A DNA stretch of 20,000 nucleotides from an uncultured virus (IMG/VR IMGVR_UViG_3300010885_066780) (lineage: Duplodnaviria > Heunggongvirae > Uroviricota > Caudoviricetes), in the IMG/VR virus record IMGVR_UViG_3300010885_066780; one strand, 5' to 3'. The notes below the pieces were generated by a model, which worked only from the letters and a program-made list of their open reading frames with translations, did not search any database and had not been told where the DNA came from. Made by a program: the position numbers and the translations under genes. Positions 989 to 19,045 of the stretch are shown in pieces (positions within the stretch are counted from its first letter, which is position 1; the number at the start of each line of letters is the position of its first letter).

Positions 989-1032
989 TGTATACTCCAA
1001 ATGTATTAGCTATTTATATATATATGATAAAT

Positions 1033-1391: not shown

Positions 1392-1464
1392 TGGAGCGAA
1401 TGCTGGTATTCGAAACCAGTGGGTCTGACAGGCAATCGGACTCCTCTCCCAGGAGGACATTCGC
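1392..1464 (-). tRNA. tRNA-Gly(GCC), atypical
   Basis: Acceptor GCGAATG/CATTCGC, U73, CCA; loop TT-GCC-TG; T arm CTGGT-TTCGAAT-ACCAG (U53-A61). Confidence 0.85.
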
Positions 1465-1472
1465 ATAAATTA

Positions 1473-1563
1473 TGGAGGATAGCGGAGAGAACGATTCCCA
1501 TACCATTTGAAAGGTACCAACTGTTTAGCAAACAGCGCCAACCACCCGGTTGATTCACTATCC
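1473..1563 (-). tRNA. tRNA-Ser(GCT), 8/4 fold with 6-bp D stem
   Basis: Acceptor GGATAGTG/CGCTATCC (8 bp), T stem GGGA/TCTC (4 bp), D arm TCAACC-GGGT-GGTTGG, long variable arm, loop TT-GCT-AA, CCA. Confidence 0.9.
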
Positions 1564-1566
1564 AAA

Positions 1567-1653
1567 TTATTTAAATGTGAACCAAGCTACCAGTCCCCAA
1601 AACACACTGGGAATTAATAAACAGATCCACATTCCAATATATCCTTTTTTCAT
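1567..1653 (-). CDS. Possible small membrane peptide, 28 aa
   Basis: MKKGYIGMWICLLIPSVFWGLVAWFTFK; hydrophobic, fills intergenic gap; no clear RBS. Confidence 0.4.
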   Translation of the reverse strand: MKKGYIGMWICLLIPSVFWGLVAWFTFK

Positions 1654-1673
1654 ATTTTAATTATATGAATTCG

Positions 1674-2978
1674 TTAATTGGAGTCAAGATGTTGTTGCGC
1701 AATATCTAAAGCATGTTCCAGGTCTGGAAAAGTTATTCCTAATAATTGTATAGCAGAAATAAGCATTACTGCTTCTTTGTAGTTTTTGCTCACCGTCAAT
1801 AGAGGAACAATAGTTTTCATGATTTCTCGATGAACAACTCGATCACTTTTCTTAGCAGGATCGGCAGCAACTTGGCGAACTACCGCAGCAATATCAGGAT
1901 AAGCAGTGGCATTTGATTTGAGTCTGAACCAGTCAACTGGATCAATTATGGTGGTATTAATTTGATATCGTCCATCGGATCTATCAGTCCAGTCTGCTGA
2001 AATTATATTCATTTGGTTTGTTTGCTTATTATAACGATAGGTCAAATATACTACATTGTTATTTTCAGATCCATATACTGCATAATAAGCGATCTTAAAT
2101 GGCATTCCCTTGAGAATCGCTACTCCGGAAGCATTACTGGAATTATCTTTCGGAGTCATTTGGTAATTGACTCCCGCAAATGTAACTATGTTTGCGTTGT
2201 TCTTTTTACACCATTCAATGAACTCATGAATAGTATTAGCGGTGGGCTGCTTGCTGAGTTTATAAGCAGTTAATCTAGCTTGTAGGTCTTTAGTGCCTTT
2301 TTCTATTTCCCAGCGAGATAACTGTCTTTTTTGTCTTTTACCCATTGCAACTTCATCCTGGAGAACGAGTTTTGCGGTCACAGGCTGGTTTTTTGTTTTG
2401 CCAAGCAGCATTATCATATTCATCAAGTCGGCTAGTGAACCAGTGTCGGTCTTTGTACCCGCTAACTTGTTGATATATTCAACTCGATTTTCTTCGCTAT
2501 AACCACCCACGTATTCATAGTCTTTAGTAGTTCGAATAGAAGAAGTAGGCAATGCGCGCAATTGTTGATTCCAAGGCAGCTCCTTGTTTATTGCTTCAAT
2601 ATCATCTTTATATGCAGACAAATCCCAGGCCATCCATTGTTCTCGACTGGCGCCAGCTAAATGATAGGCATCTGTAATTGCAAATATAACAGCTTGGTCA
2701 CCCATATAAACTGCGAATGCAACCGGATGCTTTTTATCAGCGGTTTGTTTTTTATATGCAGCTCGAATATCTTTTAGGCCATTTTTCAAAACGCTCAAAT
2801 CTATGACTGGACTGGTGTTTGATAGCCAATTATTTTGAACAAAACTAGGGTTGAATTTATTTTGTATAGTACTTGTTCTTCGACCATAATCATTTTGTTT
2901 CAACAAATCTCCCAATGGCCCCAAATTCAATTGAGCTAGGGTTCCCAAATCTTCTGTCAATACTTGCCAAAGTCTCAT
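1674..2978 (-). CDS. Hypothetical late/virion protein, ~434 aa
   Basis: Long ORF; N-terminus MRLWQVLTE resembles a capsid-targeting propeptide; ATAAATAG upstream at 3001-3008. Confidence 0.85.
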   Translation of the reverse strand: MRLWQVLTEDLGTLAQLNLGPLGDLLKQNDYGRRTSTIQNKFNPSFVQNNWLSNTSPVIDLSVLKNGLKDIRAAYKKQTADKKHPVAFAVYMGDQAVIFAITDAYHLAGASREQWMAWDLSAYKDDIEAINKELPWNQQLRALPTSSIRTTKDYEYVGGYSEENRVEYINKLAGTKTDTGSLADLMNMIMLLGKTKNQPVTAKLVLQDEVAMGKRQKRQLSRWEIEKGTKDLQARLTAYKLSKQPTANTIHEFIEWCKKNNANIVTFAGVNYQMTPKDNSSNASGVAILKGMPFKIAYYAVYGSENNNVVYLTYRYNKQTNQMNIISADWTDRSDGRYQINTTIIDPVDWFRLKSNATAYPDIAAVVRQVAADPAKKSDRVVHREIMKTIVPLLTVSKNYKEAVMLISAIQLLGITFPDLEHALDIAQQHLDSN

Positions 2979-3000
2979 CAATACACCAAATGTCTATTGA

Positions 3001-3017
3001 CTATTTATCATAAATAG
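3001..3017. promoter_or_regulatory. Back-to-back (bidirectional) T4-like late promoter motifs
   Basis: Perfect inverted repeat CTATTTAT-C-ATAAATAG between divergent genes. Confidence 0.7.
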
Positions 3018-3020
3018 TGG

Positions 3021-4448
3021 ATGCGTTACTGGGAAATAATAAACGAAGCTCTGAACATGGAGCTTACTATTCAAAATTGGGCCAAGCCACTTCGTGATCG
3101 AGTCAAAAGAGATACGAAATTTTCAATTCCGCCGCAAATGACAGATCAAGAATTGATTGATTGGTTTGCTCAATGGGATCCAACCAAAGCTAAAAAATAT
3201 TTGATCAATTGGATCTTACCACGATATGTCTGGGGTGGAATCAACTATGCAGAAGACTTGGAAGGAGTGCACGATGATCTAGCTAACTTTGATCGATTCA
3301 AACAACGCATGCCTGAAAAGGATATTCTAAAAATAAAGACGGCTGCTGAATTGGCGACTATGGTCCGTGAAACACTGAAACCACCTGGTAGCATAGACGG
3401 TCCAAATGGCACAATACCACCGGCTGAAGTACAAGCCGCTCATTCAGAATCCATAAAGGTATTTGAAGACGACACCAATCTGATTGTTATTCCTCTAACT
3501 GCTCGTGCAGCTGGATTCTGGGGACGCCATTCCAATTGGTGCACTGCCTATGGTTATAAATGGGGCAACTATCCTGATCGAACTAGTTGGTTTGAACAAT
3601 ATAATAATGAAGGACAACGATTGTTGACGGTTTTGAATAAACAAGATCCAGAAGCAATTGGATTGAATTTTCAATGTCATTATGATGGTCAATTTGGTGA
3701 AGCAAGTCAGATTATGGATTTGACAGATTATGATGCGATTGACGATAATAAATTGGCCAAAATATTTGAAAAATTATCTAATAGTCAATTGGAAATTATT
3801 GCCAAAAATTGTTTGGCGTATTATGATGTTGAAACCGACAATACCAGTCGATTCGACATTCATTCAACTAACAAAATTACGGCAGACAGCAGACTACTTG
3901 TAAAGAATATTAAATTTCCAGACTTGATAAAAGTACATGGTAATGACACGGCCAAATGGGCTTGGCAAACAATAGTTGGTGACCGGCATTTTGATACCCC
4001 ATATTTTGAAGAAAATCTGGAAACTATTGTGGAAGATCGATTACCTAGAAAACTCCGAGACAAGTTGGCCGCTTGGTTAGATAAAAAATATCCCGATTCC
4101 GAAAACGAATCCATTGCTGATTGCTTGGAAAATAATGACGAATATCAAATTATTGAAACACTGAAAAGTGAGAATTACAATGCTTTTCGGAATGGTTGCG
4201 AAGGTGCTATGTGGCAGGCATTCGACGAAGCTGTTTCAGAAGCCAATATTCAATTGATGGAACCTCACAACTATGAAGGACTGTGTTCAGTCATTGGTCC
4301 CAAAGTCATTGATTTCTTGAGTTATCCACGTTTTCGTGAAGATCCAGATGACAATCAATTAATTGTGTTGCAGGAACCCAATTATGGTTGGGATGGATAT
4401 GATAAATCAATTTGGGAACAAGGTGAGATAGAAGCGCTGTTGATTTAA
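3021..4448 (+). CDS. Hypothetical late/virion protein, 475 aa, with WCT-motif domain common in large phages
   Basis: N-terminus MRYWEIINE; segment LIVIPLT-AA-FWG-SNWCTA-F-QY; ATG 3 nt after ATAAATAG. Confidence 0.85.
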   Translation: MRYWEIINEALNMELTIQNWAKPLRDRVKRDTKFSIPPQMTDQELIDWFAQWDPTKAKKYLINWILPRYVWGGINYAEDLEGVHDDLANFDRFKQRMPEKDILKIKTAAELATMVRETLKPPGSIDGPNGTIPPAEVQAAHSESIKVFEDDTNLIVIPLTARAAGFWGRHSNWCTAYGYKWGNYPDRTSWFEQYNNEGQRLLTVLNKQDPEAIGLNFQCHYDGQFGEASQIMDLTDYDAIDDNKLAKIFEKLSNSQLEIIAKNCLAYYDVETDNTSRFDIHSTNKITADSRLLVKNIKFPDLIKVHGNDTAKWAWQTIVGDRHFDTPYFEENLETIVEDRLPRKLRDKLAAWLDKKYPDSENESIADCLENNDEYQIIETLKSENYNAFRNGCEGAMWQAFDEAVSEANIQLMEPHNYEGLCSVIGPKVIDFLSYPRFREDPDDNQLIVLQEPNYGWDGYDKSIWEQGEIEALLI

Positions 4449-4449
4449 T

Positions 4450-4524
4450 TGGGGTCTCTAGATGGAATCGCACCATCATGCCCGGGATATGAATCCGGTC
4501 CACTCGCTGTTGTGGTATAGAGAC
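4450..4524 (-). tRNA. tRNA-Met (or Ile2) (CAT)
   Basis: Acceptor GTCTCTA/TAGAGAC, C73, CCA; D stem CCAC/GTGG; loop TT-CAT-AT; T loop TGCGATT. Confidence 0.85.
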
Positions 4525-4542
4525 ATGAATATTCAAAAATTG

Positions 4543-5766
4543 TTATTCGTCATCTTCTTCATCATCAGTTGCATTGTCATCATGATTATCAGTTGTTCCA
4601 CTTGATGGATGTGAAGAGATGAAATTATAATCACTAGAAGTTCCTATATTTTCAGAAAATGTCATGCTCAATATTTTTTTACCAACATTTAATGGATCTA
4701 GTATACGTTTAGTGTAGTTATTGATTGCATTGACTTGTCCACGCGAATATCTCGCAATTATTCTAAACATAAGCAGGAAATCAGTATAATTGCTTGTTGA
4801 TGGCAATAATAAAAAGACTGATGACATAGCTCGAGATTGAATCATTGAGAATAATATACTACCAATAGTCACATGTATACGAACATCACGAATTCGAGGT
4901 AGCTGTCGCCCTGCACTGCCAGTTATTTTTATTTCCCAGGGATATTCCATTCTTTCATGAACATTTTCCATATCCACTTGTATTTGTTGACCATGTTCAG
5001 TTACAAATACGCATCGCATATGCCAAGCGCTATTGATTGTTTGGCTATAATCATATCTTTCTTTTTTATCCAAAATTGAATCTGATTTTAAAAATTCTGG
5101 CAGTGCTTCATTAAATGCATACTGCAATGAAGTTTCAACATCATCGATGCGACTTCTACGGATTTCCTTCACTCGGTTAACTAATATGTTCGTTATGCTA
5201 CTTTTTAGATACGATTCAGCATCAATTGCGCATACGACTAAAACATTTGATAATCTATTTGGTTGGATGTTTGTTTGATTTAAAGCAGTATTATCTTTTG
5301 CTAGATCTAATGTTACCCATCCAAATTTTTTCCCCAATCTGTTAGCTAAAGCACGGTATAATTTGTCATGACTATCTGTAGCTGGGTGACACTTAAAAAA
5401 TACTGGTTGAAATTTAATAATTACTTCTTCTAATGATTGCCTTACTGCTGAAAAAACTCTAGCAGCAGTAGATCCATAATTGTTAGAAACTCCAAATTCG
5501 CCGTCAACACTAAATTCAACATCATAACCAAATGCATTGCCAATATAAATTGCATCAAAGGTTATTTTAAATCTTAAAAATTCACCTTCTTGATCTCTAA
5601 TACGAGTGGAAGCATGTATAGATTTTTTGAGATTTCCACGCCATTCAAAGTCATATTTGGTATCAAGATATTCTAGAAACATATCTTTGTGATTTTCATT
5701 ATGTGGTTTTTTCAAACTTAAAGTTTCAAATAAATTAATAAACCTTCTTATTTCTTCAGAACTCAT
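4543..5766 (-). CDS. Hypothetical late/virion protein, ~407 aa, acidic C-terminus
   Basis: Likely start ATG 5766 (MSSEEIRRFINLFE, same N-terminal class as genes at 988 and 7829); ATAAATAC motif at 5791-5798. Confidence 0.85.
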   Translation of the reverse strand: MSSEEIRRFINLFETLSLKKPHNENHKDMFLEYLDTKYDFEWRGNLKKSIHASTRIRDQEGEFLRFKITFDAIYIGNAFGYDVEFSVDGEFGVSNNYGSTAARVFSAVRQSLEEVIIKFQPVFFKCHPATDSHDKLYRALANRLGKKFGWVTLDLAKDNTALNQTNIQPNRLSNVLVVCAIDAESYLKSSITNILVNRVKEIRRSRIDDVETSLQYAFNEALPEFLKSDSILDKKERYDYSQTINSAWHMRCVFVTEHGQQIQVDMENVHERMEYPWEIKITGSAGRQLPRIRDVRIHVTIGSILFSMIQSRAMSSVFLLLPSTSNYTDFLLMFRIIARYSRGQVNAINNYTKRILDPLNVGKKILSMTFSENIGTSSDYNFISSHPSSGTTDNHDDNATDDEEDDE

Positions 5767-5803
5767 TGAATGACCACTTAATAATTTCAAGTATTTATTC
5801 AAT

Positions 5804-5878
5804 TGGATGAAGCGATTGGGGTCGAACCAATAACTACCGATCCAGAGTCGGTCGTTTTACCAGTTAAACTACGCTTCA
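5804..5878 (-). tRNA. tRNA-Gln(CTG)
   Basis: TGAAGCG/CGCTTCA acceptor (U1-A72), ACCGA-CT-CTG-GA-TCGGT, TTCGA T loop, CCA. Confidence 0.95.
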
Positions 5879-5884
5879 AAATTT

Positions 5885-5959
5885 TGGCGCAGATGACCAG
5901 GATCGCACTGGCCTAACCCGTTAGACAGACGGGCCTCTTCACTAGATGAGTACACCTGC
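5885..5959 (-). tRNA. tRNA-Asp(GTC)
   Basis: GCAGGTG/CATCTGC acceptor, G73, CCCGT-CT-GTC-TA-ACGGG, T loop TGCGATC, CCA. Confidence 0.9.
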
Positions 5960-5967
5960 ATTATAGT

Positions 5968-6061
5968 TGGCGGAGGAAGGGTCGTATTGCACGCCTAACC
6001 GGGTCCTAGCCGGTTCTACAGTTTTCAAGACTGTCGTTGGAACTTTCCAACATCATCCTCC
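5968..6061 (-). tRNA. tRNA-Ser(TGA), atypical (8/4-like, 6-bp D stem)
   Basis: ACAGT-CT-TGA-AA-ACTGT, long variable arm AACCGG/CCGGTT, D arm GTTGGA-AAGT-TCCAAC, bulged T stem, G73, CCA. Confidence 0.85.
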
Positions 6062-6069
6062 GTGTGCTT

Positions 6070-6144
6070 TGGTACTAGCGGAAGGTAACGCTCCTTCTAC
6101 CACAGAGTTATCAGCTCTGGCCCTCACTTTTCGGACTCACTAGT
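6070..6144 (-). tRNA. tRNA-Ile(GAT)
   Basis: ACTAGTG/CGCTAGT acceptor, A73, CAGAG-CT-GAT-AA-CTCTG, T arm GAAGG-AGCGTTA-CCTTC, CCA. Confidence 0.9.
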
Positions 6145-6186
6145 ATGATTTTAAAACATTTGAGCTATGGGCACAAATAAATTTGT

Positions 6187-6420
6187 TTAAATGTCAGTTG
6201 CAGATCGGTGTGACTTATAATCACGCTCACGTTCTTGCAAATATAATCCATCTACGATAGCTGGATAAGTTTCCACAACCTGCCACCCATTGGTCCAAGT
6301 TCCCGCTTGTCGGAGCCGAACATATTTGCCTGGTATGGCATGCTCAACTGGGATCCAAGCCACATGAGTATCACCATTGACTCGTTTCAGTACCGCATGT
6401 TTATATTGATTTCGGTTCAT
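6187..6420 (-). CDS. Hypothetical protein, 77 aa
   Basis: GGAGG RBS before ATG 6420 (MNRNQYK...); the longer track ORF runs through tRNA-Asn. Confidence 0.8.
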   Translation of the reverse strand: MNRNQYKHAVLKRVNGDTHVAWIPVEHAIPGKYVRLRQAGTWTNGWQVVETYPAIVDGLYLQERERDYKSHRSATDI

Positions 6421-6450
6421 AGCTTTCCTCCTTGTGTTTGTTTGAATGAT

Positions 6451-6540
6451 TGGCTCCTGAGGGAGTAATCGAAACTCCATAACCCTTTCGGGTATACGCC
6501 GAGTTAACAGCTCGGTCACCTACCATTAGTGCACTCAGGA
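6451..6540 (-). tRNA. tRNA-Asn(GTT) with long variable arm
   Basis: TCCTGAG/CTCAGGA acceptor, G73, CCGAG-CT-GTT-AA-CTCGG, variable hairpin ACCC-GAAA-GGGT, CCA. Confidence 0.9.
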
Positions 6541-6549
6541 ATAAAAGAT

Positions 6550-6632
6550 TGGGCTACCGGGGTGGTTCCGCCCCACTTTCGACTGGGTTAAAAGGCCAGC
6601 GTCGGACTATCCTGACTATACGATCCCGGTAG
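6550..6632 (-). tRNA. tRNA-Lys(TTT)-like, 8/4 fold, enlarged D loop
   Basis: CTACCGGG/CCCGGTAG acceptor, C73, T arm GTGG-GGCGGAA-CCAC, CTGGC-CT-TTT-AA-CCCAG (C31.C39 mismatch), CCA. Confidence 0.75.
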
Positions 6633-6645
6633 ATTTTTTATTTAG

Positions 6646-6722
6646 TGGTAAGCCCTTTGGGATTTGAACCCAAAACCTACCTTCGTAGAGTCGGTCGCTC
6701 TGACCAGTTGAGCTAAGGGCTT
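6646..6722 (-). tRNA. tRNA with ambiguous anticodon arm: Arg(ACG) or amber-suppressor-like (CTA)
   Basis: Canonical acceptor AAGCCCT/AGGGCTT, D arm and TTCAAAT T arm; central segment ACCGACTCTACGAAGGTAGGTT folds in two registers. Confidence 0.8.
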
Positions 6723-6735
6723 ATATTATAAAAGT

Positions 6736-6822
6736 TGGAGAACCAGGTCAGAATCGAACTGACTAGGAGATTCCTCTCGACGAATTAAGAGTTCGTTGGA
6801 CCGACCATTGTCCATCTGGTTC
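6736..6822 (-). tRNA. tRNA-Lys(CTT) with long variable arm
   Basis: GAACCAG/CTGGTTC acceptor, U73, ACGAA-CT-CTT-AA-TTCGT, variable hairpin GAGA-GGAA-TCTC, TTCGATT, CCA. Confidence 0.9.
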
Positions 6823-6830
6823 ATATGTAG

Positions 6831-6910
6831 TGGCCCCACCCCGCTGAATTGAACAGCGTCCTCGAGTTTTTCAGACTCATGTGCTTACCATGTGAATACA
6901 CCTGAGTGGG
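6831..6910 (-). tRNA. tRNA-Phe(GAA), enlarged D loop
   Basis: CCCACTC/GGGTGGG acceptor, TGAGT-CT-GAA-AA-ACTCG, TTCAATT, CCA. Confidence 0.9.
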
Positions 6911-6919
6911 AAATTTGAA

Positions 6920-6996
6920 TGGTACGTTCGGAGGGATTTGAACCCCCAACCAACAGTTTCTAAAACTGCGCTCTCTGCCAATTGGAGTACGAACGC
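6920..6996 (-). tRNA. tRNA-Leu(TAG) lacking long variable arm
   Basis: GCGTTCG/CGAACGT acceptor, A73, GCAGT-TT-TAG-AA-ACTGT, 5-nt variable region, TTCAAAT, CCA. Confidence 0.9.
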
Positions 6997-7005
6997 ATGT
7001 AGAAT

Positions 7006-7084
7006 TGGGTGCGTCGGTGGGAAATGCTCAACCACGATCTCCGGCATATGAAACCGGCGAGATAGACTTCTTCTCTACTACGCA
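7006..7084 (-). tRNA. tRNA-Met(CAT), atypical T arm
   Basis: TGCGTAG/CGACGCA acceptor (one mismatch), CCGGT-TT-CAT-AT-GCCGG, bulged T stem with AGCATTT loop, CCA; 5' end overlaps endonuclease stop codon. Confidence 0.8.
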
Positions 7085-7623
7085 TCATTATTCTTTAGTT
7101 TGGTTTCTGATATCTTTTTTCTAATTTCATCAGGAACTACTTTACCGGTTAAGGCTTTTGCTATTTTTCCTTTAGTTTCTATAGAATGTTTTTTACCGAG
7201 ACGAGATTGTCTAATCTTTTCTATGGTTTCTGGAGAATGCTTTCGTGATTTATACTTAATTCTAGTTTCATCTGTTATGATTCTATCCGAACTTGCATAT
7301 GCAATCTTTTTCTTAGTAGAATTTGAATGACGCTTCCCCTTAAAGTGTGGACCGCCTTCGCCGCCTATACCAAGATTATATGTATCTGTTCTACTGACAA
7401 ATTCTTCAGTTATTAGTTCTTTTTCTTTGGAATTCATCTCTTCTTCTGTATCAAAGATGAATAAAACCTCTTTAGAAAATTTTTCTTTACCATATTTCTT
7501 AATGGCATCTCTTAAATGCTTTCCAGATCCTAAATAGGAATCATTTGGATCTTTGGTTTGATGTTTTCCAATATAGATTTTACCATTGATTAGGTTCTTG
7601 GTCTGATATATCGTATAGTACAT
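7078..7623 (-). CDS. GIY-YIG homing endonuclease with NUMOD3 repeats (SegB-like)
   Basis: TIY...NGKIYIG motif, YLGSG, AIKKYG; C-terminal repeats GKRHSNSTKKKI, RKHSPETIEKIR, GKKHSIETKGKI; freestanding within tRNA cluster like T4 segB. Confidence 0.92.
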   Translation of the reverse strand: MYYTIYQTKNLINGKIYIGKHQTKDPNDSYLGSGKHLRDAIKKYGKEKFSKEVLFIFDTEEEMNSKEKELITEEFVSRTDTYNLGIGGEGGPHFKGKRHSNSTKKKIAYASSDRIITDETRIKYKSRKHSPETIEKIRQSRLGKKHSIETKGKIAKALTGKVVPDEIRKKISETKLKNNDA

Positions 7624-7628
7624 TTTAT

Positions 7629-7653
7629 TACTCCTATATACGGAGTATTTATA
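7629..7653 (-). promoter_or_regulatory. Late promoter plus RBS-sequestering hairpin of the homing endonuclease
   Basis: TATAAATA (7646-7653) overlapping hairpin TACTCC-7nt-GGAGTA whose 3' arm is the RBS. Confidence 0.75.
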
Positions 7654-7702
7654 ATATCAGAAACCAGTTACTAACCATCTTGTCCTTCCTGCTATAAAAA
7701 TT

Positions 7703-7788
7703 TGGTCCATCACCTTGGATCCGCCCCAAGTATGCCCGAAGGCGCTCGATTTACAGTCGAGTCCAGTCTCTCATGCCGGTCGTGATGG
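7703..7788 (-). tRNA. tRNA-Tyr(GTA) with C1-G72
   Basis: CCATCAC/GTGATGG acceptor, A73, CTCGA-CT-GTA-AA-TCGAG, variable hairpin GCC-TTCG-GGC, T loop GGCGGAT, CCA. Confidence 0.9.
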
Positions 7789-7828
7789 ATAATAATAAAT
7801 AATCAGTATTGCATTTTTAGGAAAACAC

Positions 7829-8170
7829 ATGAGCTCAACTGAAATGAGAAAATATATTCAACTATTAGAGAATATAGAACTTGAAGAAAAATGGAGTGCC
7901 AAATATAAACGGAGTATTGATTGCACTCACCCCAAAGGTTTCAGTCAAAGAGCACATTGCGCCAGTAAAAAACAACAGAACGAAAGCACTGATGAAATGC
8001 AAATGACATGCCCAGATTGTGGTATGTGTGAAACACATGGCAACCTCAATGAGATCAAAAAAGGTCAAAAAGATGCAAATGGAGTGACCAAATGCTGGTC
8101 AGGTTATCATGCACAAGGAACCAAACCAGGTAAAAATGGAGGTCGAGTACGCAACTGTGTGCCTGATTGA
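7829..8170 (+). CDS. Cys-rich hypothetical late/virion protein, 113 aa
   Basis: AGGA RBS, ATAAATA upstream; N-terminus MSSTEMRKYIQLLE; mini-modules KWSAKYKRSIDC-PKGFSQRAHC, CPDCGMC, CWSGY...NCVP. Confidence 0.85.
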   Translation: MSSTEMRKYIQLLENIELEEKWSAKYKRSIDCTHPKGFSQRAHCASKKQQNESTDEMQMTCPDCGMCETHGNLNEIKKGQKDANGVTKCWSGYHAQGTKPGKNGGRVRNCVPD

Positions 8171-8193
8171 TTTTTATAAGTTATTGAAATGAT

Positions 8194-8270
8194 TGGGAGA
8201 ACCAGCGGGAATTGAACCCTGCATCCCTTGATTGAAAGTCAAGAATCTTCTGCCATTAGACGATGGTTCC
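8194..8270 (-). tRNA. tRNA-Glu(TTC)
   Basis: GGAACCA/TGGTTCT acceptor, CTTGA-CT-TTC-AA-TCAAG, TTCAATT T loop, CCA. Confidence 0.9.
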
Positions 8271-8309
8271 ATAAAGTGTTGGATGATGTAATTTAGTTGC
8301 TATAAAAGA

Positions 8310-8759
8310 TTAAGACTCTGCACCAAATTTCTTACGAAGACGTTCGAACTCTTTTCGATCCCGTTCTTCTTGCGCTTTGTCTCGTGCATATTTTTCTCGA
8401 GCCTGCTCTTCTAGCTTGATCTCTGTAATTTGCTTGAGACGTTGTTCTTCAATCGGATGCCAGTCAATTCCTAGATAGGATTGAGGAAAGGTCACTGTGA
8501 TTGAATCTTCAACTCGAGACCAATAAAAATACACACTTACGACAGGAGTTCCTACACCCCAATCAGGTCCTTCTTCACCTTCATGATAAGGGCTATGATA
8601 ATCAAAAAGACGATAGCGTTCAAATCCATATTGAGAGCTTAAAGATTGTTGTTCTCGCATTGAATAGATTTTACGAGCCATCTTGTTCAGCTTGTCCTCT
8701 ACTTGCTCTGTAGCTTGTTCAGCTTCACGAATCTGATCAAGTGTTAGGTAATCATTCAT
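8310..8759 (-). CDS. Hypothetical protein, 149 aa, C-terminal charged helix
   Basis: AAGGA RBS before ATG 8759 (MNDYLT...), downstream of sigma70-type promoter. Confidence 0.8.
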   Translation of the reverse strand: MNDYLTLDQIREAEQATEQVEDKLNKMARKIYSMREQQSLSSQYGFERYRLFDYHSPYHEGEEGPDWGVGTPVVSVYFYWSRVEDSITVTFPQSYLGIDWHPIEEQRLKQITEIKLEEQAREKYARDKAQEERDRKEFERLRKKFGAES

Positions 8760-8796
8760 TGAGTTTTCCTTTTCAATTTTGGTATTACTCATAAGC

Positions 8797-8824
8797 ATAA
8801 TACCACATAATATTATATTGTCAA
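8797..8824 (-). promoter_or_regulatory. Sigma70-type (early) promoter
   Basis: TTGACA-16-TATTAT with TG at extended -10. Confidence 0.65.
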
Positions 8825-8841
8825 GAAGAATCATAAAATAT

Positions 8842-8916
8842 TGGATGATCCCCTAGGCCACGATCCTAGATATCCAAAGCCAAAATTTGGCGACTTACCA
8901 ATTAGTCGAGGGATCA
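8842..8916 (-). tRNA. tRNA-Gln(TTG)
   Basis: TGATCCC/GGGATCA acceptor, CCAAA-TT-TTG-GC-TTTGG, T loop ATCGTGG, CCA. Confidence 0.9.
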
Positions 8917-8962
8917 ATAATTTCTGTTCGATGTTTTTTTGATATAAAAATTTATATGACTG

Positions 8963-9240
8963 CTACCAATACGTAAATTTAAAAATGTAAATTTTATAAA
9001 ATTTTATTACCTTTTTTCTATTTTCTGATTTAGTTAGGTATTGTAAGTTTGAAATAGAATGCAACCCTCCTTTGGATATAGGGATAATATGATCGACCTC
9101 ATATCCTTCGGGACAAGCTTCATAAAATTTTTTAATTGCTGAAAGATCTTCGTCATGTGGAGTATTATATTTCTTTTTGGCATTATATCTCGCCCATGCT
9201 TCTCGTTTGATACCTCGCGTGTGTTCTTTTGATACCTTGG
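8963..9240 (-). pseudogene. HNH endonuclease, probably 5'-truncated and frameshifted near the 3' end
   Basis: YEVDHIIPISKGGLHSISNLQYLTKSENRKK; upstream part of the ORF is the antisense of another gene; one extra A in the A6 run (~9012-9017) would give KKGNKIL-stop. Confidence 0.7.
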
Positions 9241-9438
9241 GTAGATTCCAATAATAAAAATAGAAAATATTTTCCGGATTTTTACCTACCAAAATATGAT
9301 CTTTATTTAGATCCAAAAAATGATTACCAAATAAAGATTGGTCAAGAAAAGTTAGATTGTGTTTCAAACAAAATTCATCTAATTTATGGTCGAGTTGAAT
9401 ATATTCAACAATATATTTTGAATATCATGACCAGTTAA
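9229..9438 (+). pseudogene. PD-(D/E)XK (TnsA-N/homing-type) endonuclease C-terminal fragment
   Basis: IPWVD...RKYFPDFYLPKYDLYLDPKNDY motif; only a TTG start, N-terminal part apparently missing. Confidence 0.65.
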
Positions 9439-9473
9439 ACTGCCCGGCAACAATTTATAGCATATAATAAAAA

Positions 9474-11786
9474 CTAATCAGGATATAGTGCAGCCAAAGC
9501 TTCAGCACTGTCTGCACGAGTATTACCGGTGCCTATATCCAGGTGTGCTTGACAATATGCTCGTATCTCATGTCCAGGGATACGAGAGATTGCACTGGGT
9601 GGTATGGGGTTGGTGCTATACACAGGATGAAAACGTTGCATGTCTAAAGCTGGGTCATCAAACACTGTCCAATCTTTTGGCAAGCTTATGCGCCAAATGT
9701 CGGTGGGTTCCCTATAAGGTCTAGACCACGTTGCCCATTCACATACATCTTCAAATCGCCTAAACATATAAACCCCAGGTATTCTTTGACGTTGAGTATA
9801 TTTTTTGATCATGACCAACAGTCCCAATCTCTCAATGTTATGCCTAGATTCAGATGGACTCATATGATAGAAAGTTTGAGAACCTGTTTGTTCATTCAAT
9901 ATAAATTCATAAGCTCTCATACTGTTATTTATGGTCTGGGTGGGAAGTTTTGCAATTCCAGCCTCTTGCAAGCCTAACACGTTAATTTCAAACTGTCTTT
10001 CAATCCATTTCTTTGCATCGTTTTCTTTTTCATATAAACTACTTTTTATATAATATCCGTCACGCCCATCAGGATAAATTGCCGCAATCCAGCCTGCGGT
10101 TTGCTTTTTGATATATCCAATGTATCTTTTAGAATTAGCAACATTGGAATATTTCATGCTTACATCATAACTAACGTTGCCATCGCTTGAAGTGGATTTT
10201 ACATATATAAAATCAACGTTGTGTTTTTTACTAAAATTAAACATTTCGTCCAGTGGTTCACCCATGTCATTTACTGAGCTACGCATATGTGATTGCCATT
10301 CTGGAACATGATCAATTGCACTAACGACAAATTCCATTACAGCAGCGACCGCATCTGGATTATCACCAAAGAATTCTTCTAAATCACGGTAACCAATATC
10401 ATGTACCAACTTTTCCAGTGTTCTAGCATCAACGCTTGGGTTGTTTCTCATCCACAGATCTATTGAATTGCCAGCTGTATTTGATTCTGAAACATTAATT
10501 CTTTTTTCATGATCGCCATTATAGCTGGGTTGACGAGTATTGTCCAGGTATTCTTTTTTAACCCAGTTGATAGCAGCCTGTGAAGTTTTAAAACCGCGTT
10601 GGGATTTTTTGGTTGTATTGGAATAAGCAGACCAAGTTTCTCCGTTTGTGGATTTTTGTACTATTCCAACTTGTTTGCCACCGTCACTAATGATTGCTTC
10701 TTGACCTTTTTTTGTCCAATGAGCTTTGGGTTCTACTACATTTTCCATCAATGATTTGTTGGGATCAGCTGCTGCGGTTTTGACAGCATCGGAAATTTCT
10801 CGGGTACTAGCATTTGGCATTACTACTCGAATGGCTGCTGTGACTGCTGCTTGATCTCGGTGTCCCAATTCTTTTTCATCATAGATGGTTTCAAACATTT
10901 GAGTAATTTTGGCCAGATCGTCAGGATGTAAATCATACCCACGATGTTTTTTTAGCATGCCAATTGCTCGTTCCACGAATTGTTCTTTGGATATTGGTGT
11001 TTCATCACTTTCATCCAAGTCTTCTGGTCCTCGATAAGTCCACATTTTTTTCAAAATATTAATACCAAAAATTGCAACACCGACTGCTCCTAATAGATCA
11101 ACTAGTGTAGAAAATTCAGTGTCTGATTCAGTTACTTTTCCCCAGCCTGTTTTTGCACGAATAGCAAAAGTCACTTCTTGTTGTTTGGTGTATTCTTCAG
11201 AACCTTTTTTATGGGGTCCTGATGCCTTCAACTTTTTTAATTCTGCTTTTAAAGCAGCTACTGTTTTACCAGCAAACATACCTTTTTTCTTTTTTGGAGT
11301 CTTCATTTTAGAAACCCATTTTTCCATGAGATTGCTATTTGCTGCTAAACGAGCTTCTTTTTCAGTTGCATATCCTTCATGACCTTGTATGATTACATGC
11401 CCATTACGAGATTTATACCAAAACCACATTCCATCAGAATCTTGATATACTTTGACTTCTGTTTGATCAGTATTGTTTATGGGATCGTCCCAGGTTTCCA
11501 TGACTTGGTCATGAGTTGATTTGGGAGTTTTAGAGTTGATGGCTGCTTGAATTTTTTCTATTTTTAATTCAATGGCTTTTATAGCTGCATCGGGTTTTTT
11601 AGTCCCTTTTGCATAACGCAATTTACGGCGTTCTTCTTCCAACTGTTCTTCGAGTGCATCCAATGACAAACCAGAATAGGGATTGGTATCATTTGAATCT
11701 TCTTGAATCGAAGCTGATTCAGTCAATGTTGTTTTTTCAATTGAATTAAATTGATCTAGTAAATTTCTTATGTCTTTGGCACTCAT
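9474..11786 (-). CDS. Modular late/virion protein, 770 aa, with DUF1508/YegP-like module and C-terminal ADP-ribosyltransferase/Tpt1-fold-like domain
   Basis: AAGGA RBS and TATAAATA upstream; VYQDSDGMWFW..SRNGHVI..GHEGYATEKEA; C-terminal TFYHMS..NIERLGL..GVYMF..IWRI..IPPSAI; many [LIV]xE sites. Confidence 0.85.
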   Translation of the reverse strand: MSAKDIRNLLDQFNSIEKTTLTESASIQEDSNDTNPYSGLSLDALEEQLEEERRKLRYAKGTKKPDAAIKAIELKIEKIQAAINSKTPKSTHDQVMETWDDPINNTDQTEVKVYQDSDGMWFWYKSRNGHVIIQGHEGYATEKEARLAANSNLMEKWVSKMKTPKKKKGMFAGKTVAALKAELKKLKASGPHKKGSEEYTKQQEVTFAIRAKTGWGKVTESDTEFSTLVDLLGAVGVAIFGINILKKMWTYRGPEDLDESDETPISKEQFVERAIGMLKKHRGYDLHPDDLAKITQMFETIYDEKELGHRDQAAVTAAIRVVMPNASTREISDAVKTAAADPNKSLMENVVEPKAHWTKKGQEAIISDGGKQVGIVQKSTNGETWSAYSNTTKKSQRGFKTSQAAINWVKKEYLDNTRQPSYNGDHEKRINVSESNTAGNSIDLWMRNNPSVDARTLEKLVHDIGYRDLEEFFGDNPDAVAAVMEFVVSAIDHVPEWQSHMRSSVNDMGEPLDEMFNFSKKHNVDFIYVKSTSSDGNVSYDVSMKYSNVANSKRYIGYIKKQTAGWIAAIYPDGRDGYYIKSSLYEKENDAKKWIERQFEINVLGLQEAGIAKLPTQTINNSMRAYEFILNEQTGSQTFYHMSPSESRHNIERLGLLVMIKKYTQRQRIPGVYMFRRFEDVCEWATWSRPYREPTDIWRISLPKDWTVFDDPALDMQRFHPVYSTNPIPPSAISRIPGHEIRAYCQAHLDIGTGNTRADSAEALAALYPD

Positions 11787-11830
11787 AGCAAATCCTTTTA
11801 TTATCCACTATTTATACCAAAATATAAAAA

Positions 11831-11925
11831 TAGCCACAGCCCCCACGCCCGCCTGACTACTGACCTTTTCCTAATTGTTCATGCCCCTCGAGTGGAGGTC
11901 AATTGTACCTAGAAGGCCTTACCGA
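11831..11925 (-). ncRNA. Candidate structured ncRNA downstream of tRNA-Trp
   Basis: GC-rich non-coding island with nested stems GGCCTT/AAGGTC, AATTG/CAATT, CCTC/GAGG, then a G-rich tail and U-rich run. Confidence 0.45.
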
Positions 11926-11931
11926 ATTATT

Positions 11932-12005
11932 TGGCCACCGCACCTGGAATCAAACCAAGATCATCTGTTTTGGAGACAGAGGCCCTATCATTGGACGATA
12001 CGGTA
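11932..12005 (-). tRNA. tRNA-Trp(CCA)
   Basis: TACCGTA/TGCGGTG acceptor, G73, TCTGT-CT-CCA-AA-ACAGA, T loop TTTGATT, CCA. Confidence 0.9.
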
Positions 12006-12023
12006 GCATAAAATATTTCTAAA

Positions 12024-12198
12024 CGCAGGAGTTGTTAATTCCCACTATCGCTATCACCGGCCTTGGCCAGTAATAGTTGCGCCTTTTTCCTACCCAATTG
12101 TAACTCAACAATTCACATTGCCCAATTGGGAATCCATCCGCTATGCCGGTAACATTTCGCTTTGTCTGCAGGCTGGTTACTCGCCTTTTTAGTCCTGT
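12024..12198 (-). ncRNA. Candidate ~175-nt multi-stem ncRNA
   Basis: Terminal helix ACAGGA/TCCTGC, stems GTAAC/GTTAC, CCCAATTG/CAATTGGG, hairpin CTATTACTGGCC/GGCCGGTGATAG; no convincing ORF. Confidence 0.55.
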
Positions 12199-12257
12199 TA
12201 AATTCTATCTATCCACCACTATTCATATTTCTACCTTGCTCCTATGTTTCAGGTAAT

Positions 12258-12284
12258 AAAAAACCCCGGATTTTTGATCCGAGG
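12258..12284 (-). terminator. Intrinsic terminator (attenuator)
   Basis: CCTCGGAT-CAAAA-ATCCGGGG followed by TTTTTTATT. Confidence 0.85.
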
Positions 12285-12339
12285 CCTGTAAAATTTGATT
12301 TTTGAAGTTTCAGCTTCTTATTTCAAATTTTGGGGCCTC
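12281..12339 (-). promoter_or_regulatory. Antiterminator hairpin overlapping the leader stop codon and the terminator 5' arm
   Basis: GAGGCC-CC-AAAATTTGA (12339-12323) pairs with TCAAATTTT-ACA-GGCCTC (12298-12281); inner hairpin GAAG-CTGAAA-CTTC. Confidence 0.75.
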
Positions 12340-12451
12340 CAGAACCACGCTCAAAATTGGGTTGATTTGAGCCAAACTGACGCACGCTTGGGCTGGTCAC
12401 GGACCAATCCAGATAGGCGAGTTCAAATTTTGGTTTCATAATCAGTGTCAT
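12323..12451 (-). CDS. Putative attenuator leader peptide, 42 aa
   Basis: AAAGGA RBS; MTLIMKPKFELAYLDWSVTSPSVRQFGSNQPNFERGSGGPKI-TGA; below ORF-track cutoff; stop codon lies within antiterminator 5' arm. Confidence 0.75.
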   Translation of the reverse strand: MTLIMKPKFELAYLDWSVTSPSVRQFGSNQPNFERGSGGPKI

Positions 12452-12483
12452 TGAAGTTTCAGTTCCTTTGTTTGTTCGATCTA

Positions 12484-12512
12484 TTTATGCCTGTTCTTGA
12501 ATTCAAAGTCAA
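12484..12512 (-). promoter_or_regulatory. Promoter P2 for leader (sigma70-like plus late motif)
   Basis: TTGACT-17-CATAAA(TAG); overlapped by inverted repeat TGTTCTTGA-8-TCAAGAACA (12492-12517). Confidence 0.6.
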
Positions 12513-12564
12513 GAACAAAAATTATTTTTCTAAATTTTTCTAATCTTCGAAAAATCTACTACTA

Positions 12565-12593
12565 TTTATACCACCAGTTCAGTTGAGTGTCAA
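12565..12593 (-). promoter_or_regulatory. Promoter P1 for leader (sigma70-like plus late motif)
   Basis: TTGACA-17-TATAAA with TG extension; the -10 is also a perfect TATAAATA. Confidence 0.75.
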
Positions 12594-12600
12594 CCGATCA

Positions 12601-12792
12601 TTAAATATGATATGCAATATCTTCCCAATCATCTTGGGACATGCTGAGATAATCCATTTCGGTATACCCAAGCCTGTCAATTCCGTTTCCGCAGCCAACA
12701 TAGTTCCCATCTTGATCAACTCCGGAATAACCATAGCTATCATATCCTTCGGAATCATAATCAGCCATATGTTGCTTAGACATATAGGCCAC
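12601..12792 (-). CDS. Small acidic hypothetical protein, 63 aa
   Basis: GGAG RBS before GTG 12792; YDSEGYDSYGY motif; TTGACA-16-TATTGT upstream (12826-12853). Confidence 0.7.
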   Translation of the reverse strand: MAYMSKQHMADYDSEGYDSYGYSGVDQDGNYVGCGNGIDRLGYTEMDYLSMSQDDWEDIAYHI

Positions 12793-16763: not shown

Positions 16764-17546
16764 ATGAATAAAATTGAATATTCAGATAATGTACATCCAA
16801 AATTTGGAAGACCATTAGTATCCAAATTTATAAATTTTAAAGAATTGAAATTATCACATGCTAGAAATGTTGCTATCAACAAAAGACAATTGAATGAATA
16901 TAAAATTGTTCCTGAAATGGAATTTCCAGTTCATGATTTGACAAAAGGCACTCACATAGGAAATGCAAACACAACATTAGGACCAATGCAAATTTATAGG
17001 ATGTATGAAATCAATGAAGATCAACAACATATGATTTTATATGCATTTATAAGAGAAGATTTGGGTCCTACAAAACCATTATGTCAAATCGTGTTTAATT
17101 ATATAGAAAATATTGGATTATTGAGAAAAGGTATGTATTGTGTTGCTGGATTCCGTGGCCGAGGTTTGATTTCAGAATTAACTTTGTGTGTTACCAAAAT
17201 GGATGATGAAAGAATCATAAGTGATGTGCATATGACACCTTCTGGAGAAAAAGCTTGGGAAAAATTATTGCGAGATTATCCTTCACAAACTGGGATTTTT
17301 CATGGACCAACTCAAAAAGTTTATCCTCTCCAGGCAGCTAATAAAATATTCAATAATGTATTTGTTGTTAGTCCTAAAGATGACAATGCAAGTGATCAAT
17401 ATTGGTTTGAAAATCCAGAACATGGACAAGCTTGGTTTTACTATATCAATTATCATATTAATACTATTCAAGAATCAGCAGTCAATAATTCTAGGCACCT
17501 TGGGTTGATTCAACCATATTATTCTTTTGGAGACGGTTATGAATAA
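16764..17546 (+). CDS. GNAT-like hypothetical protein, paralog 1
   Basis: AGGAG RBS; YCVAGFRGRGLISEL motif A-like, ISD..MT.SG..AW; ends QPYYSFGDGYE. Confidence 0.8.
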   Translation: MNKIEYSDNVHPKFGRPLVSKFINFKELKLSHARNVAINKRQLNEYKIVPEMEFPVHDLTKGTHIGNANTTLGPMQIYRMYEINEDQQHMILYAFIREDLGPTKPLCQIVFNYIENIGLLRKGMYCVAGFRGRGLISELTLCVTKMDDERIISDVHMTPSGEKAWEKLLRDYPSQTGIFHGPTQKVYPLQAANKIFNNVFVVSPKDDNASDQYWFENPEHGQAWFYYINYHINTIQESAVNNSRHLGLIQPYYSFGDGYE

Positions 17547-18309
17547 ATTTTCAAAAAAATACAATCATCTATTAGAAAATTCATTACCAATAAATGCTTA
17601 TTGTCAAAATGATTTGACACTGAAAACCGCCATAAGAAACCCCATTCAATTGAATGAATATATTATAATTGATGTAACACATTTCACCGCAGTTGATTTT
17701 TCTAAGGCTACTTTGATTGGAAAAGTAAATAGTACTTTGGGTATGCTAGATGTTTATCGAGCAACATTCACTAATCAAACTATTTGGTATGCTTTGGTTG
17801 ATCCAATTATTGGTCCTTCAGCGTCGTTGTGTCATATAGCATTCTTGTTTAAAGAAGATTTACCATTATTGAGAAAAAATGCCTATTGTCTACCAGAATA
17901 TAGAAACAAAGGATTAATTTCAGAATTGAATTTGTTCATTGCCAAAAAAGAAGGTATCACAACAATCAGTGACACTCTAATGAGTCAGTCAGGCGCAAAG
18001 ACTTGGGAAAGAATGATTCGATTGTATCCATCACACTGTGGTATATTTTATGGTCCAACGCAAGATGTTTTTGCAATCGATAAAATTGGCACTAAACAAA
18101 ATGGCTTAACTATAGTTGATCCAGCAAAAGATAGTCGCAGTGCACTTTATTGGTTTGAAGATCCAGATCAAGGACAAAAATGGTTTTATATTTTTCTGTC
18201 ATTTGATGAACAGCCAATTACAGAAGATGAACATATATTCTATAATGCTATAAACAGAAGTTTGGATTCTTTTCAACCCTATTGCTTCTTTGGAGACGGT
18301 TATGAATGA
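17539..18309 (+). CDS. GNAT-like hypothetical protein, paralog 2
   Basis: Start MNKFSKK at 17539 with GGAG RBS inside upstream gene; YCLPEYRNKGLISEL; ends QPYCFFGDGYE. Confidence 0.8.
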   Translation: MNKFSKKYNHLLENSLPINAYCQNDLTLKTAIRNPIQLNEYIIIDVTHFTAVDFSKATLIGKVNSTLGMLDVYRATFTNQTIWYALVDPIIGPSASLCHIAFLFKEDLPLLRKNAYCLPEYRNKGLISELNLFIAKKEGITTISDTLMSQSGAKTWERMIRLYPSHCGIFYGPTQDVFAIDKIGTKQNGLTIVDPAKDSRSALYWFEDPDQGQKWFYIFLSFDEQPITEDEHIFYNAINRSLDSFQPYCFFGDGYE

Positions 18310-19045
18310 AGTTAGATATTCAGATTATGTTCATCCAAAATTTGGAAGAGCATTGCTTTGTGATCCTATTTACTATGAAGATCATTCACTCGAAACCGCT
18401 CTAAAATCTCCGACGACATACACTTTGGATTTTTCTTCAAGAGATTTTTCGCTGGCAAAAATAGTGGGAATAGTTGGTAGTTTTTGTGGACAAAAAGCAG
18501 TGTATCGCATAGTATTTGACAATGGTCGAATCTGGTATGGATTATTTGAACGCAATAAATGTAATTCTGATTCAACAAATCTCATATGTGGCTGGGAATT
18601 CATATATGATCCTGCCCGCCCACTGTTACCAAATGATTCATTCTGTAAAAAAGAATATCAAGGACAAGGACTTTTATCAGAATTGTTTTGGTTTATTGCA
18701 AAAAATGAACATCATTCAATCAGCAGTCCTGTAGTACCAAAATGTGATACGATAAAATTTTGGAATGCACTGCTTCATGATTTCTATGTCAAACATATTA
18801 GTATATATCATTGGCCAACGAAACAAACATATACCGCATATTCAGCAGGAAAAGTAATTGATGGTCAATATGTGATTGATCCAAATCAAGAAAAGATGAC
18901 CGAGTATTATCATATGCCGGAAGAATATATTAAATTCAAGGAGTGGTTCTATGTCTATAAAACGCCAACATCTAGAACTTCTTCCGAAGACAGATATTTG
19001 GGACCAATTCAACCCTATTGCAAATTTGGTGATGGTTATGAATGA
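18302..19045 (+). CDS. GNAT-like hypothetical protein, paralog 3
   Basis: Start MNEVRYSDYVHPKFGR (matches paralog 1 N-terminus); FCKKEYQGQGLLSEL; ends QPYCKFGDGYE. Confidence 0.8.
   Translation: MNEVRYSDYVHPKFGRALLCDPIYYEDHSLETALKSPTTYTLDFSSRDFSLAKIVGIVGSFCGQKAVYRIVFDNGRIWYGLFERNKCNSDSTNLICGWEFIYDPARPLLPNDSFCKKEYQGQGLLSELFWFIAKNEHHSISSPVVPKCDTIKFWNALLHDFYVKHISIYHWPTKQTYTAYSAGKVIDGQYVIDPNQEKMTEYYHMPEEYIKFKEWFYVYKTPTSRTSSEDRYLGPIQPYCKFGDGYE

Follow-up and report, generated by a model that had tools for sequence, protein, structure and literature searches.

The window analysed here, a stretch of 20,000 nucleotides (nt) from a 128-kb contig of an uncultured freshwater phage, contains a candidate switch locus composed of two promoters (P1 and P2), a 42-codon open reading frame (ORF), a hairpin, an intrinsic terminator and, beyond a spacer, a gene for tRNA-Trp, all on the minus strand (Table 1). 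The locus is preceded by a row of genes encoding a helicase, an HD protein and an 81-amino acid (aa) ORF, the last of which stops at 12601 and is followed by P1 and P2. An earlier note on this DNA, whose span of 12258-12593 runs from the -35 element of P1 through the last base of a run of six U (U6), had interpreted the region as a leader-peptide attenuator that heads a phage tRNA array and possibly senses translation failure. The features described below are read as a leader-ORF transcription attenuator placed before tRNA-Trp, in which the ribosome would control a conditional terminator, and this reading is put forward tentatively, as one that falls a little short of being probable. Two relatives of the locus were found, a 9-kb metagenome contig (L004) and a contig from sequencing run X4, each of which is ~94-95% identical to the window in the shared block.

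The anatomy of an attenuator is present at the locus. The 42-codon ORF and the hairpin that had been claimed for it were both located, the last codons and the stop of the ORF forming the 5' arm of a structure of 15 pairs, the antiterminator, which has a folding energy of -19.2 kcal/mol (z -5.5) and was matched in strength by 0 of 200 shuffles. The 3' arm of the antiterminator overlaps the terminator, and the stretch common to both, GGCCUC, makes the two folds mutually exclusive, again as claimed. The terminator ranks first of the 23 terminator-like sites in the window, at -14.3 kcal/mol (range -13.8 to -14.3, z -4.0), and the antiterminator is transcribed before it, is ~5 kcal/mol more stable and takes 6 of its 11 pairs. 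The stop codon of the ORF is part of the antiterminator 5' arm, and the U tract ends 65 nt beyond it. In a chance test, the terminator was held fixed while the 165 nt from AUG to terminator were dinucleotide-shuffled 1000 times, and the measure taken was the stabilisation of the nascent transcript by upstream pairing of the terminator's 5' arm. The observed stabilisation was -11.9 kcal/mol and that of the shuffles averaged -4.9 kcal/mol (standard deviation 2.3), with 3 of the 1000 reaching the observed value. The attenuator anatomy holds and is unlikely to have arisen by chance. A long-range pairing of GAAACUUC with the U tract, present in the minimum free energy (MFE) structure, was rejected, given that an A-to-C change in L004 breaks it.

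The effect of a ribosome on these folds was modelled as a 28-nt mask at set P-site codons, with equilibrium (thermodynamic) folds and no kinetics. The pair probability of the antiterminator was 0.84 in the free full-length RNA and 0.81-0.95 with masks at P-site codons 5, 10, 15, 20, 25, 30 and 33, and it was 0 with masks at codon 35, at codon 37 and with UGA in the A site, where the MFE structure contained the complete terminator stem. The proposal that a ribosome finishing the leader masks the antiterminator is thereby borne out in folding only, with the terminator formed from codon 35 to the stop, and its logical core, that the position of the ribosome decides the fold, follows from the sequence. 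Untranslated RNA would terminate poorly in the folding model because the antiterminator forms first and is the more stable fold.

In the proposed mechanism, P1 and P2 would start a short transcript in which the 15-bp hairpin at 12339-12281 forms first, holds GGCCUC and blocks the terminator, and transcription would then continue via the 249-nt spacer into tRNA-Trp. A ribosome on codons 35-42 or on the stop would cover the 5' arm of the hairpin, allowing the terminator to fold and the transcript to end at ~12258. Efficient translation would lower read-through, and either a lack of initiation or a stall before ~codon 34 would raise it. The promoter words, the ORF, the two mutually exclusive hairpins and their excess over chance are seen in the sequence; translation of the ORF, a ribosome that keeps pace with the polymerase and an importance of read-through for tRNA-Trp are inferred. 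Among the explanations considered, only ribosome control makes use of a stop codon located in the arm, which is counted in its favour.

Table 1. Features of the candidate switch locus and of the tRNA region downstream, in order of transcription of the minus strand where applicable
Feature	Position	Strand	Details
Promoter P1	12562..12593	-	TTGACA 12593-12588, 17-nt spacer, TATAAATAG 12570-12562
Promoter P2	12481..12516	-	TTGACT 12512-12507, 17-nt spacer, CATAAATAG 12489-12481
Shine-Dalgarno (SD)-like AAGGA	12464..12468	-	12 nt before AUG; kept in L004 and X4, bases on either side vary
Leader ORF, 42 codons (MTLIMKPKFELAYLDWSVTSPSVRQFGSNQPNFERGSGGPKI)	12323..12451	-	Candidate leader peptide; sole Trp codon TGG is codon 16
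Antiterminator 5' arm (GAGGCCCCAAAAUUUGA)	12323..12339	-	Last ORF codons, including stop UGA 12325-12323
Antiterminator loop	12299..12322	-	GAAG/CUUC mini-stem; 18-nt near-copy (89%) of SD-to-AUG region (repeat D1)
Antiterminator 3' arm (UCAAAUUUUACAGGCCUC)	12281..12298	-	GGCCUC 12286-12281 common to terminator stem
Intrinsic terminator	12255..12287	-	Stem AGGCCUCGGAU / AUCCGGGGUUU 12287-12261, loop CAAAA, then U tract (U6)
Spacer from terminator to tRNA-Trp, 249 nt	12006..12254	-	No YATAAATAG word in it
Weak sigma-70-like site in spacer	12124-12097	-	TGGGCA, 16-nt spacer, TACAAT; 9/12 matches
Spacer hairpin, 11 bp	12076-12051	-	-17 kcal/mol, z -2.9, 0/200 shuffles; 46 nt upstream of tRNA-Trp
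tRNA-Trp (CCA)	11932..12005	-	First gene after terminator; starts 250 nt past U-tract end (12255)
Weak hairpin and U run after tRNA-Trp	11829..11861	-	-11.2 kcal/mol, z -1.4; conserved in L004; not flagged by terminator scan
Promoter word of 770-aa gene (ORF 11786-9474)	11808..11816	-	TATAAATAG; CATAAATAG at same place in L004
Homing endonuclease genes	GIY-YIG 7078-7623; HNH 8963-9367		Family matches in tRNA region
tRNA-like genes at relaxed ARAGORN only	1392-1464, 1472-1564, 5885-5959, 5968-6058, 7703-7788, 6835-6914	-	Gly, Ser, Asp, Ser, Tyr, Leu; intergenic
YATAAATAG copies	12570-12562(-) P1, 12489-12481(-) P2, 11816-11808(-), 3009-3017(+), 1018-1010(-)		

Two tandem minus-strand promoters had been claimed and both were found, each with a -35 element, a 17-nt spacer and a -10 word, and on these motifs P1 and P2 are regarded as probably real. 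The -10 words belong to a set of YATAAATAG copies that numbers 5 in the window against 0.53 expected, a count reached by 0 of 200 shuffles, and every copy lies 3-110 nt upstream of the start of an ORF on the same strand. The copy at 11816 precedes the 770-aa gene, that at 3009 on the plus strand a 475-aa gene, and that at 1018 the gene that ends the window, while copies in L004 are located at 1489, 1571 and 3129. Three of the 5 copies lack TTGACA at -35, and YATAAATAG probably acts on its own as a promoter word; P1 and P2 possess the word plus a consensus -35. The word resembles the T4 late promoter word and is presumably a phage-specific promoter word of that type. P1 is present in L004 with an altered -35 region, and P2 is identical there. 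A palindrome, GTTCTTGA/TCAAGAAC at 12516-12493, encloses the -35 element of P2 (inverted repeat I4). The copy at 3009 ends 3 nt before an ATG, suggesting a leaderless mRNA.

The position of the 42-codon ORF behind P2, after an A-rich untranslated region (UTR) of 20-26 nt with AAAGGA, is that of genes behind the same word; the predicted start of the P2 transcript, ~12477, gives a 5' UTR of 26 nt. The ORF was predicted by a gene caller on 3 contigs and is open and of equal length in all three variants (window, L004 and X4). It differs from L004 at 6 bases, which amount to 3 synonymous changes (codons 32, 35 and 36) and 2 adjacent replacements (S22I and V23A), and from X4 at only 2, both of which are synonymous and are among the three of L004. 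A search of the leader peptide against 5.8 billion proteins returned nothing beyond its own 90% cluster, and the leader matched no family in Pfam, PHROG or Rfam. Two proteins, P0014 (301 aa) and P0015 (944 aa), were obtained with phmmer at E values of 3.6e-6 and 2.1e-5 among 1.84 billion representatives and were rejected as relatives of the peptide: they are two unrelated repeat proteins whose repeat units match the peptide, each in 4 stretches at 30-35% identity, and the matches were judged to be repeat-boosted chance. One of the two has Y.xWSVxSP....FG in common with the leader peptide.

The switch elements are less variable than the sequence around them. Both arms and the terminator show 0 differences from L004 in 61 nt, against 25 in the 414 nt of the rest of the block 12480-12006, and at the rate of the block such a result has a probability of ~0.02. 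The arms are likewise free of differences in X4, and the terminator is invariant in both relatives, as is the pair of CCAAAAUUUGAA copies described below. The 2 changes in the antiterminator loop of L004 both fall in the mini-loop. At the HD gene, 13 of 62 fourfold-degenerate sites differ from L004. Further relatives were sought in several collections. Contigs from four DNA sequencing runs were compared, X4 being the sole source of a further variant, and metagenome_contigs yielded one relative, L004. Nothing close was found among GenBank phages, the only distant match being 135 nt of Agrobacterium phage Atu_ph07 inside the upstream ORF. In viral_contigs, no relative was found by four exact DNA words of the leader or by the 770-aa protein; the HD protein identified 3 loci there, and the leader was found in none of them. 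L001 has other genes downstream of the HD gene, and L002 and L003, inspected for tRNA genes only, have one tRNA-Thr each, upstream. No relative was found in genome_contigs by protein or DNA word.

Several observations weigh against ribosome control. The arms offer no covariation, being invariant in L004 and X4, the only two relatives found, which are nearly identical. Conservation was rejected as proof of function, since a non-coding remnant of the 81-aa ORF in L004 shows 1 difference in 37 nt and is as similar as the leader, and the low divergence may stem from a recent mosaic exchange of the block, to which the contrasting count at the HD gene also points. A ribosome-binding site had been claimed, and its AAGGA is present at 12468-12464; its spacing to the AUG, 12 nt, is longer than that of the 11 other starts whose SD sequence is recognisable (6-9 nt). 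The codon-usage score of the leader, 0.074 per codon, is intermediate between that of gene windows (0.204 +/- 0.112, with 10% scoring lower than the leader) and that of stop-free chance ORFs (-0.104 +/- 0.132), and 10 of 131 chance ORFs, the leader included, reach its score. No RNA run is listed among the sequencing runs that were searched for the locus, and the 42-codon ORF counts here as a candidate for translation. Folding predicted no upstream segment (no segment 1:2) that would restore termination when translation fails, the leader contains no run of regulatory codons and only one TGG, and the sigma-70-like site at 12124-12097 could feed tRNA-Trp independently of the switch.

A serious, if rather unlikely, rival is that the locus is an autonomous short unit, consisting of a small-protein gene or a 220-300-nt small RNA (sRNA) transcribed from P1 or P2 as far as an ordinary terminator. 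In that case the large hairpin would be an RNA structure or a stabiliser whose overlap with the terminator has no regulatory role, and tRNA-Trp would be fed by the spacer promoter, for which the sigma-70-like site is a candidate. A small gene or sRNA typically consists of a promoter, ~220 nt and a strong terminator, and P1/P2 and the terminator do bound 220-300 nt, as they equally would in an attenuator; the placement of P2 before the ORF, like the same word before real genes and with AAAGGA in the UTR, and the prediction of the ORF on 3 contigs suit a small gene, and the internal repeats of the leader (one 12-mer present twice, the 18-mer at 89%) could be RNA binding sites. Against an autonomous unit stands an earlier-formed hairpin that is 5 kcal/mol stabler than the terminator and takes 6 of its 11 pairs, a competition found in 3 of 1000 shuffles and one that would make the untranslated RNA terminate poorly. 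An sRNA is also disfavoured by the lack of an Rfam family match, and a small protein by a peptide that has no homologue and tolerates S22I and V23A.

The leader contains two different exact 12-mers, each present twice within 160 nt. One of them, CCAAAAUUUGAA, is located at 12433-12422 (codons 7-10) and at 12333-12322 in the antiterminator 5' arm, and the 18-mer at 12468-12451, which spans the SD-to-AUG region, is 89% identical to that at 12319-12302 in the antiterminator loop, the word AAGNANCUGAAACUUCAA occurring in both. When the whole window was searched with a single mismatch allowed, the matches numbered 2 (0.33 expected) and 4 (0.77 expected). These repeats raise a second alternative, namely that the conditional terminator is controlled by a factor acting in trans, either an RNA or an RNA-binding protein of phage or host, whose binding at CCAAAAUUUGAA / AAGNANCUGAAACUUCAA would shift the balance between hairpin and terminator in the manner of TRAP, PyrR or LicT-type proteins. 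It would make use of the switch, which is itself well supported, and of the fact that one copy of each 12-mer lies in the switch and that both copies of CCAAAAUUUGAA are unchanged in L004 and X4. The variants differ, however, in the first half of the 18-mer, the AT-rich leader favours short repeats, the stop codon inside the arm would be a coincidence, and no candidate binding protein emerged among the window proteins, most of which are without a family in Pfam and PHROGs; control by such a factor is considered improbable. That the locus has no regulatory function, being an operon-end terminator of upstream genes, promoters of downstream genes and a chance ORF and hairpin, is very unlikely. 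In its favour, no other strong minus-strand terminator follows the helicase-HD-81-aa gene row, small ORFs are common, with 131 chance ORFs of 30-60 codons counted in the 20 kb, and the codon diversity of the leader is ordinary. Against it stand the hairpin z of -5.5, the shuffle result of 3/1000, the arms that are invariant between variable flanks and the two promoters aimed straight into a terminator, which an operon end does not need.

Under ribosome control of the terminator, the genes that could be affected are determined by what lies downstream. Between the terminator and the next promoter word (11816) there are only the 249-nt spacer, tRNA-Trp and a weak hairpin with a U run. The 770-aa gene appears to have its own promoter, given the YATAAATAG word before it, and because this word follows, the gate can directly govern little beyond tRNA-Trp; the hairpin at 11861-11829 is a possible end of the gated unit. 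The spacer hairpin is also found in L004 (~1994-2019), where changes at 12067, 12060 and 12059 keep its pairing by converting G-C to A-U and G-C to G-U. Pairing kept through a compensatory change, with G-U among the new pairs, suggests that the spacer is transcribed into RNA from this strand, for which it is small but direct evidence, and the hairpin could be a processing or stabilising element of a tRNA precursor. The tRNA-Trp of the window is replaced by a different tRNA-Trp in L004 (2091-2165) and X4, similarity ending ~3 nt before the tRNA 5' end, and the tRNA alleles appear to be mosaic in this region with GIY-YIG and HNH endonuclease genes. In L004, a reverse-strand 289-aa ORF is inserted after tRNA-Trp.

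The earlier note had placed 18 tRNA genes downstream on the same strand. The number is lower, as ARAGORN at default identified 9 tRNAs in the window and Rfam identified 6 at gathering score plus 2 weak matches, while with relaxed ARAGORN all 13 hits at ps90 and 15 of the 19 at ps85, one of these inside the 770-aa ORF, were on the minus strand; about 14-15 were accepted for the window. The plausible ones do all lie downstream and on the minus strand. They do not form an array that the leader heads as a unit, being spread over 10.6 kb (1392 to 12005) among protein genes: nine ORFs of at least 110 aa are interspersed with them, two on the other strand and the GIY-YIG and HNH endonucleases included, and strong promoter-like sites with 11/12 matches occur at 10546 and 8824. 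The tRNA-Lys(CTT) is 87 nt long and scores in Rfam as tRNA-Sec-like, below gathering, and the tRNAs of the window are atypical.

The leader had further been regarded as codon-diverse, with codons for nearly all of the tRNAs. The counts behind this idea are correct, the leader using 28 sense codons and 18 amino acids with Cys and His missing, but they do not indicate a special design: at least 28 codons are used in 28%, and at least 18 amino acids in 25%, of 642 length-matched windows from the phage's genes. Coverage of the phage's tRNAs, put by the earlier note at 17 of 18, is at best marginal, amounting to 8 of 9 for a strict set, which is reached by 64 of 642 windows, and to 14 of 15 for a relaxed set. 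For the latter, 11 of the 642 overlapping windows from genes do as well, as do 3 of 37 chance ORFs of 38-46 codons, one of the three being the leader itself. This coverage is marginal and post hoc, and an all-codon design looks like chance. The wider proposal that the phage uses the leader to gauge translation capacity in general, and so to dose its own tRNA supply, is considered decidedly improbable. In such a scheme, the antiterminator would persist whenever charged tRNA or initiating ribosomes run short, and transcription from P1/P2 would proceed into tRNA-Trp and possibly beyond it into the tRNA region; the cause might be anticodon nucleases, starvation or a saturation of ribosomes at a late stage of infection. 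The link of the leader to anticodon nucleases is pure inference.

Other features of the window lie apart from the switch. A ~70-nt cassette at ~12853-12780 on the minus strand contains TTGACA, a 16-nt spacer and a TG-extended TATTGT, followed by GGAG and a start codon; it recurs before different genes in the window and twice in L004 (~497-560 and ~897-970), and appears to be a portable promoter-plus-ribosome-binding-site module at mosaic joints. The ORFs at 2-1000(-), 4543-5802(-), 7829-8170(+) and 9474-11786(-) have a similar N-terminal motif, MS..E/D-I/M-R..I/L..L.E; they are otherwise unrelated, their function is unassigned and none is matched by a Pfam family. At 16764-19045(+), three tandem paralogous genes of 260, 260 and 251 aa each end in ...FGDGYE and have overlapping stop/start regions, and no family in Pfam or PHROGs was found for them.

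To our knowledge, the regulation of phage tRNA genes is largely unexplored. A literature search, with subscription journals outside its coverage, returned no report of leader-peptide or attenuator control of such genes. Phage tRNA genes are reported to rescue infection from tRNA-cleaving defences (PMC11464382, PMC11555353). If ribosome control is true, the locus would constitute a feedback loop from translation performance to tRNA supply, and attenuation of the trp style would be extended to an RNA product and to viruses; if the locus is no more than a small gene or an sRNA whose terminator leaks, it is ordinary.

The surroundings of the switch, and only these, are like the T4 tRNA gene region, in which tRNA genes are interspersed with homing endonuclease genes such as that of the GIY-YIG enzyme SegB, and the accessible part of that report mentions no leader attenuator (PMC2330249). 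No T-box was matched, Rfam giving no hit to any family in 12250-12600 at gathering score or with E values of up to 1 and none in the spacer, and a 13-nt boxA consensus, with at most 3 mismatches, gave 5 matches in the window against 11.4 expected and none in 12000-12600. At lambda pR'-tR', a short 6S transcript ends at tR' unless Q modifies RNA polymerase. The phage locus resembles pR'-tR' in its strong promoter, ~200 nt and strong terminator ahead of downstream genes, by which a short RNA is the default product in one state, whereas pR'-tR' has neither a competing hairpin nor a leader ORF; in addition, no Q-like gene or binding site was identified at the phage locus, and its predicted default is read-through, not termination.

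In enterobacteria, transcription of amino-acid operons is attenuated by means of leader peptides, namely trpL, hisL, pheL, thrL and leuL. In trp, about 70 nt separate the stop codon from the end of the terminator, against 65 nt at the phage locus. Leader-peptide attenuation of these operons is described in the accessible part of one source (PMC1183508). The phage switch is like the trpL/hisL type in having a promoter-proximal short ORF, an antiterminator that overlaps an intrinsic terminator and a ribosome at the stop that would favour the terminator. Unlike that type, it has no cognate codon run and no segment 1, so that its untranslated default would be read-through, and its output is a tRNA gene rather than a biosynthetic operon; the two are not similar in sequence or by Rfam. 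A second group of leader attenuators controls resistance genes and is represented by bmrB-bmrCD of Bacillus subtilis, which senses translation stress (PMC4191407), and by the vmlR and msrD leaders (PMC9226507, 10.1101/2021.11.29.470318). According to the accessible parts of these sources, the group shares with the phage locus a leader ORF with alternative stem-loops around an intrinsic terminator, and a logic in which read-through into genes that aid translation rises when translation is impaired in general, and not when a single amino acid is lacking. The same parts describe a response to ribosome-bound antibiotics and an induction that needs translation of the leader, whereas failed initiation should lead to read-through at the phage leader. 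The phage switch further differs in its phage context and tRNA product, and is known from sequence alone. In its predicted read-through when untranslated, it may nonetheless be regarded as closer in spirit to general translation-stress attenuators such as bmrB-bmrCD.

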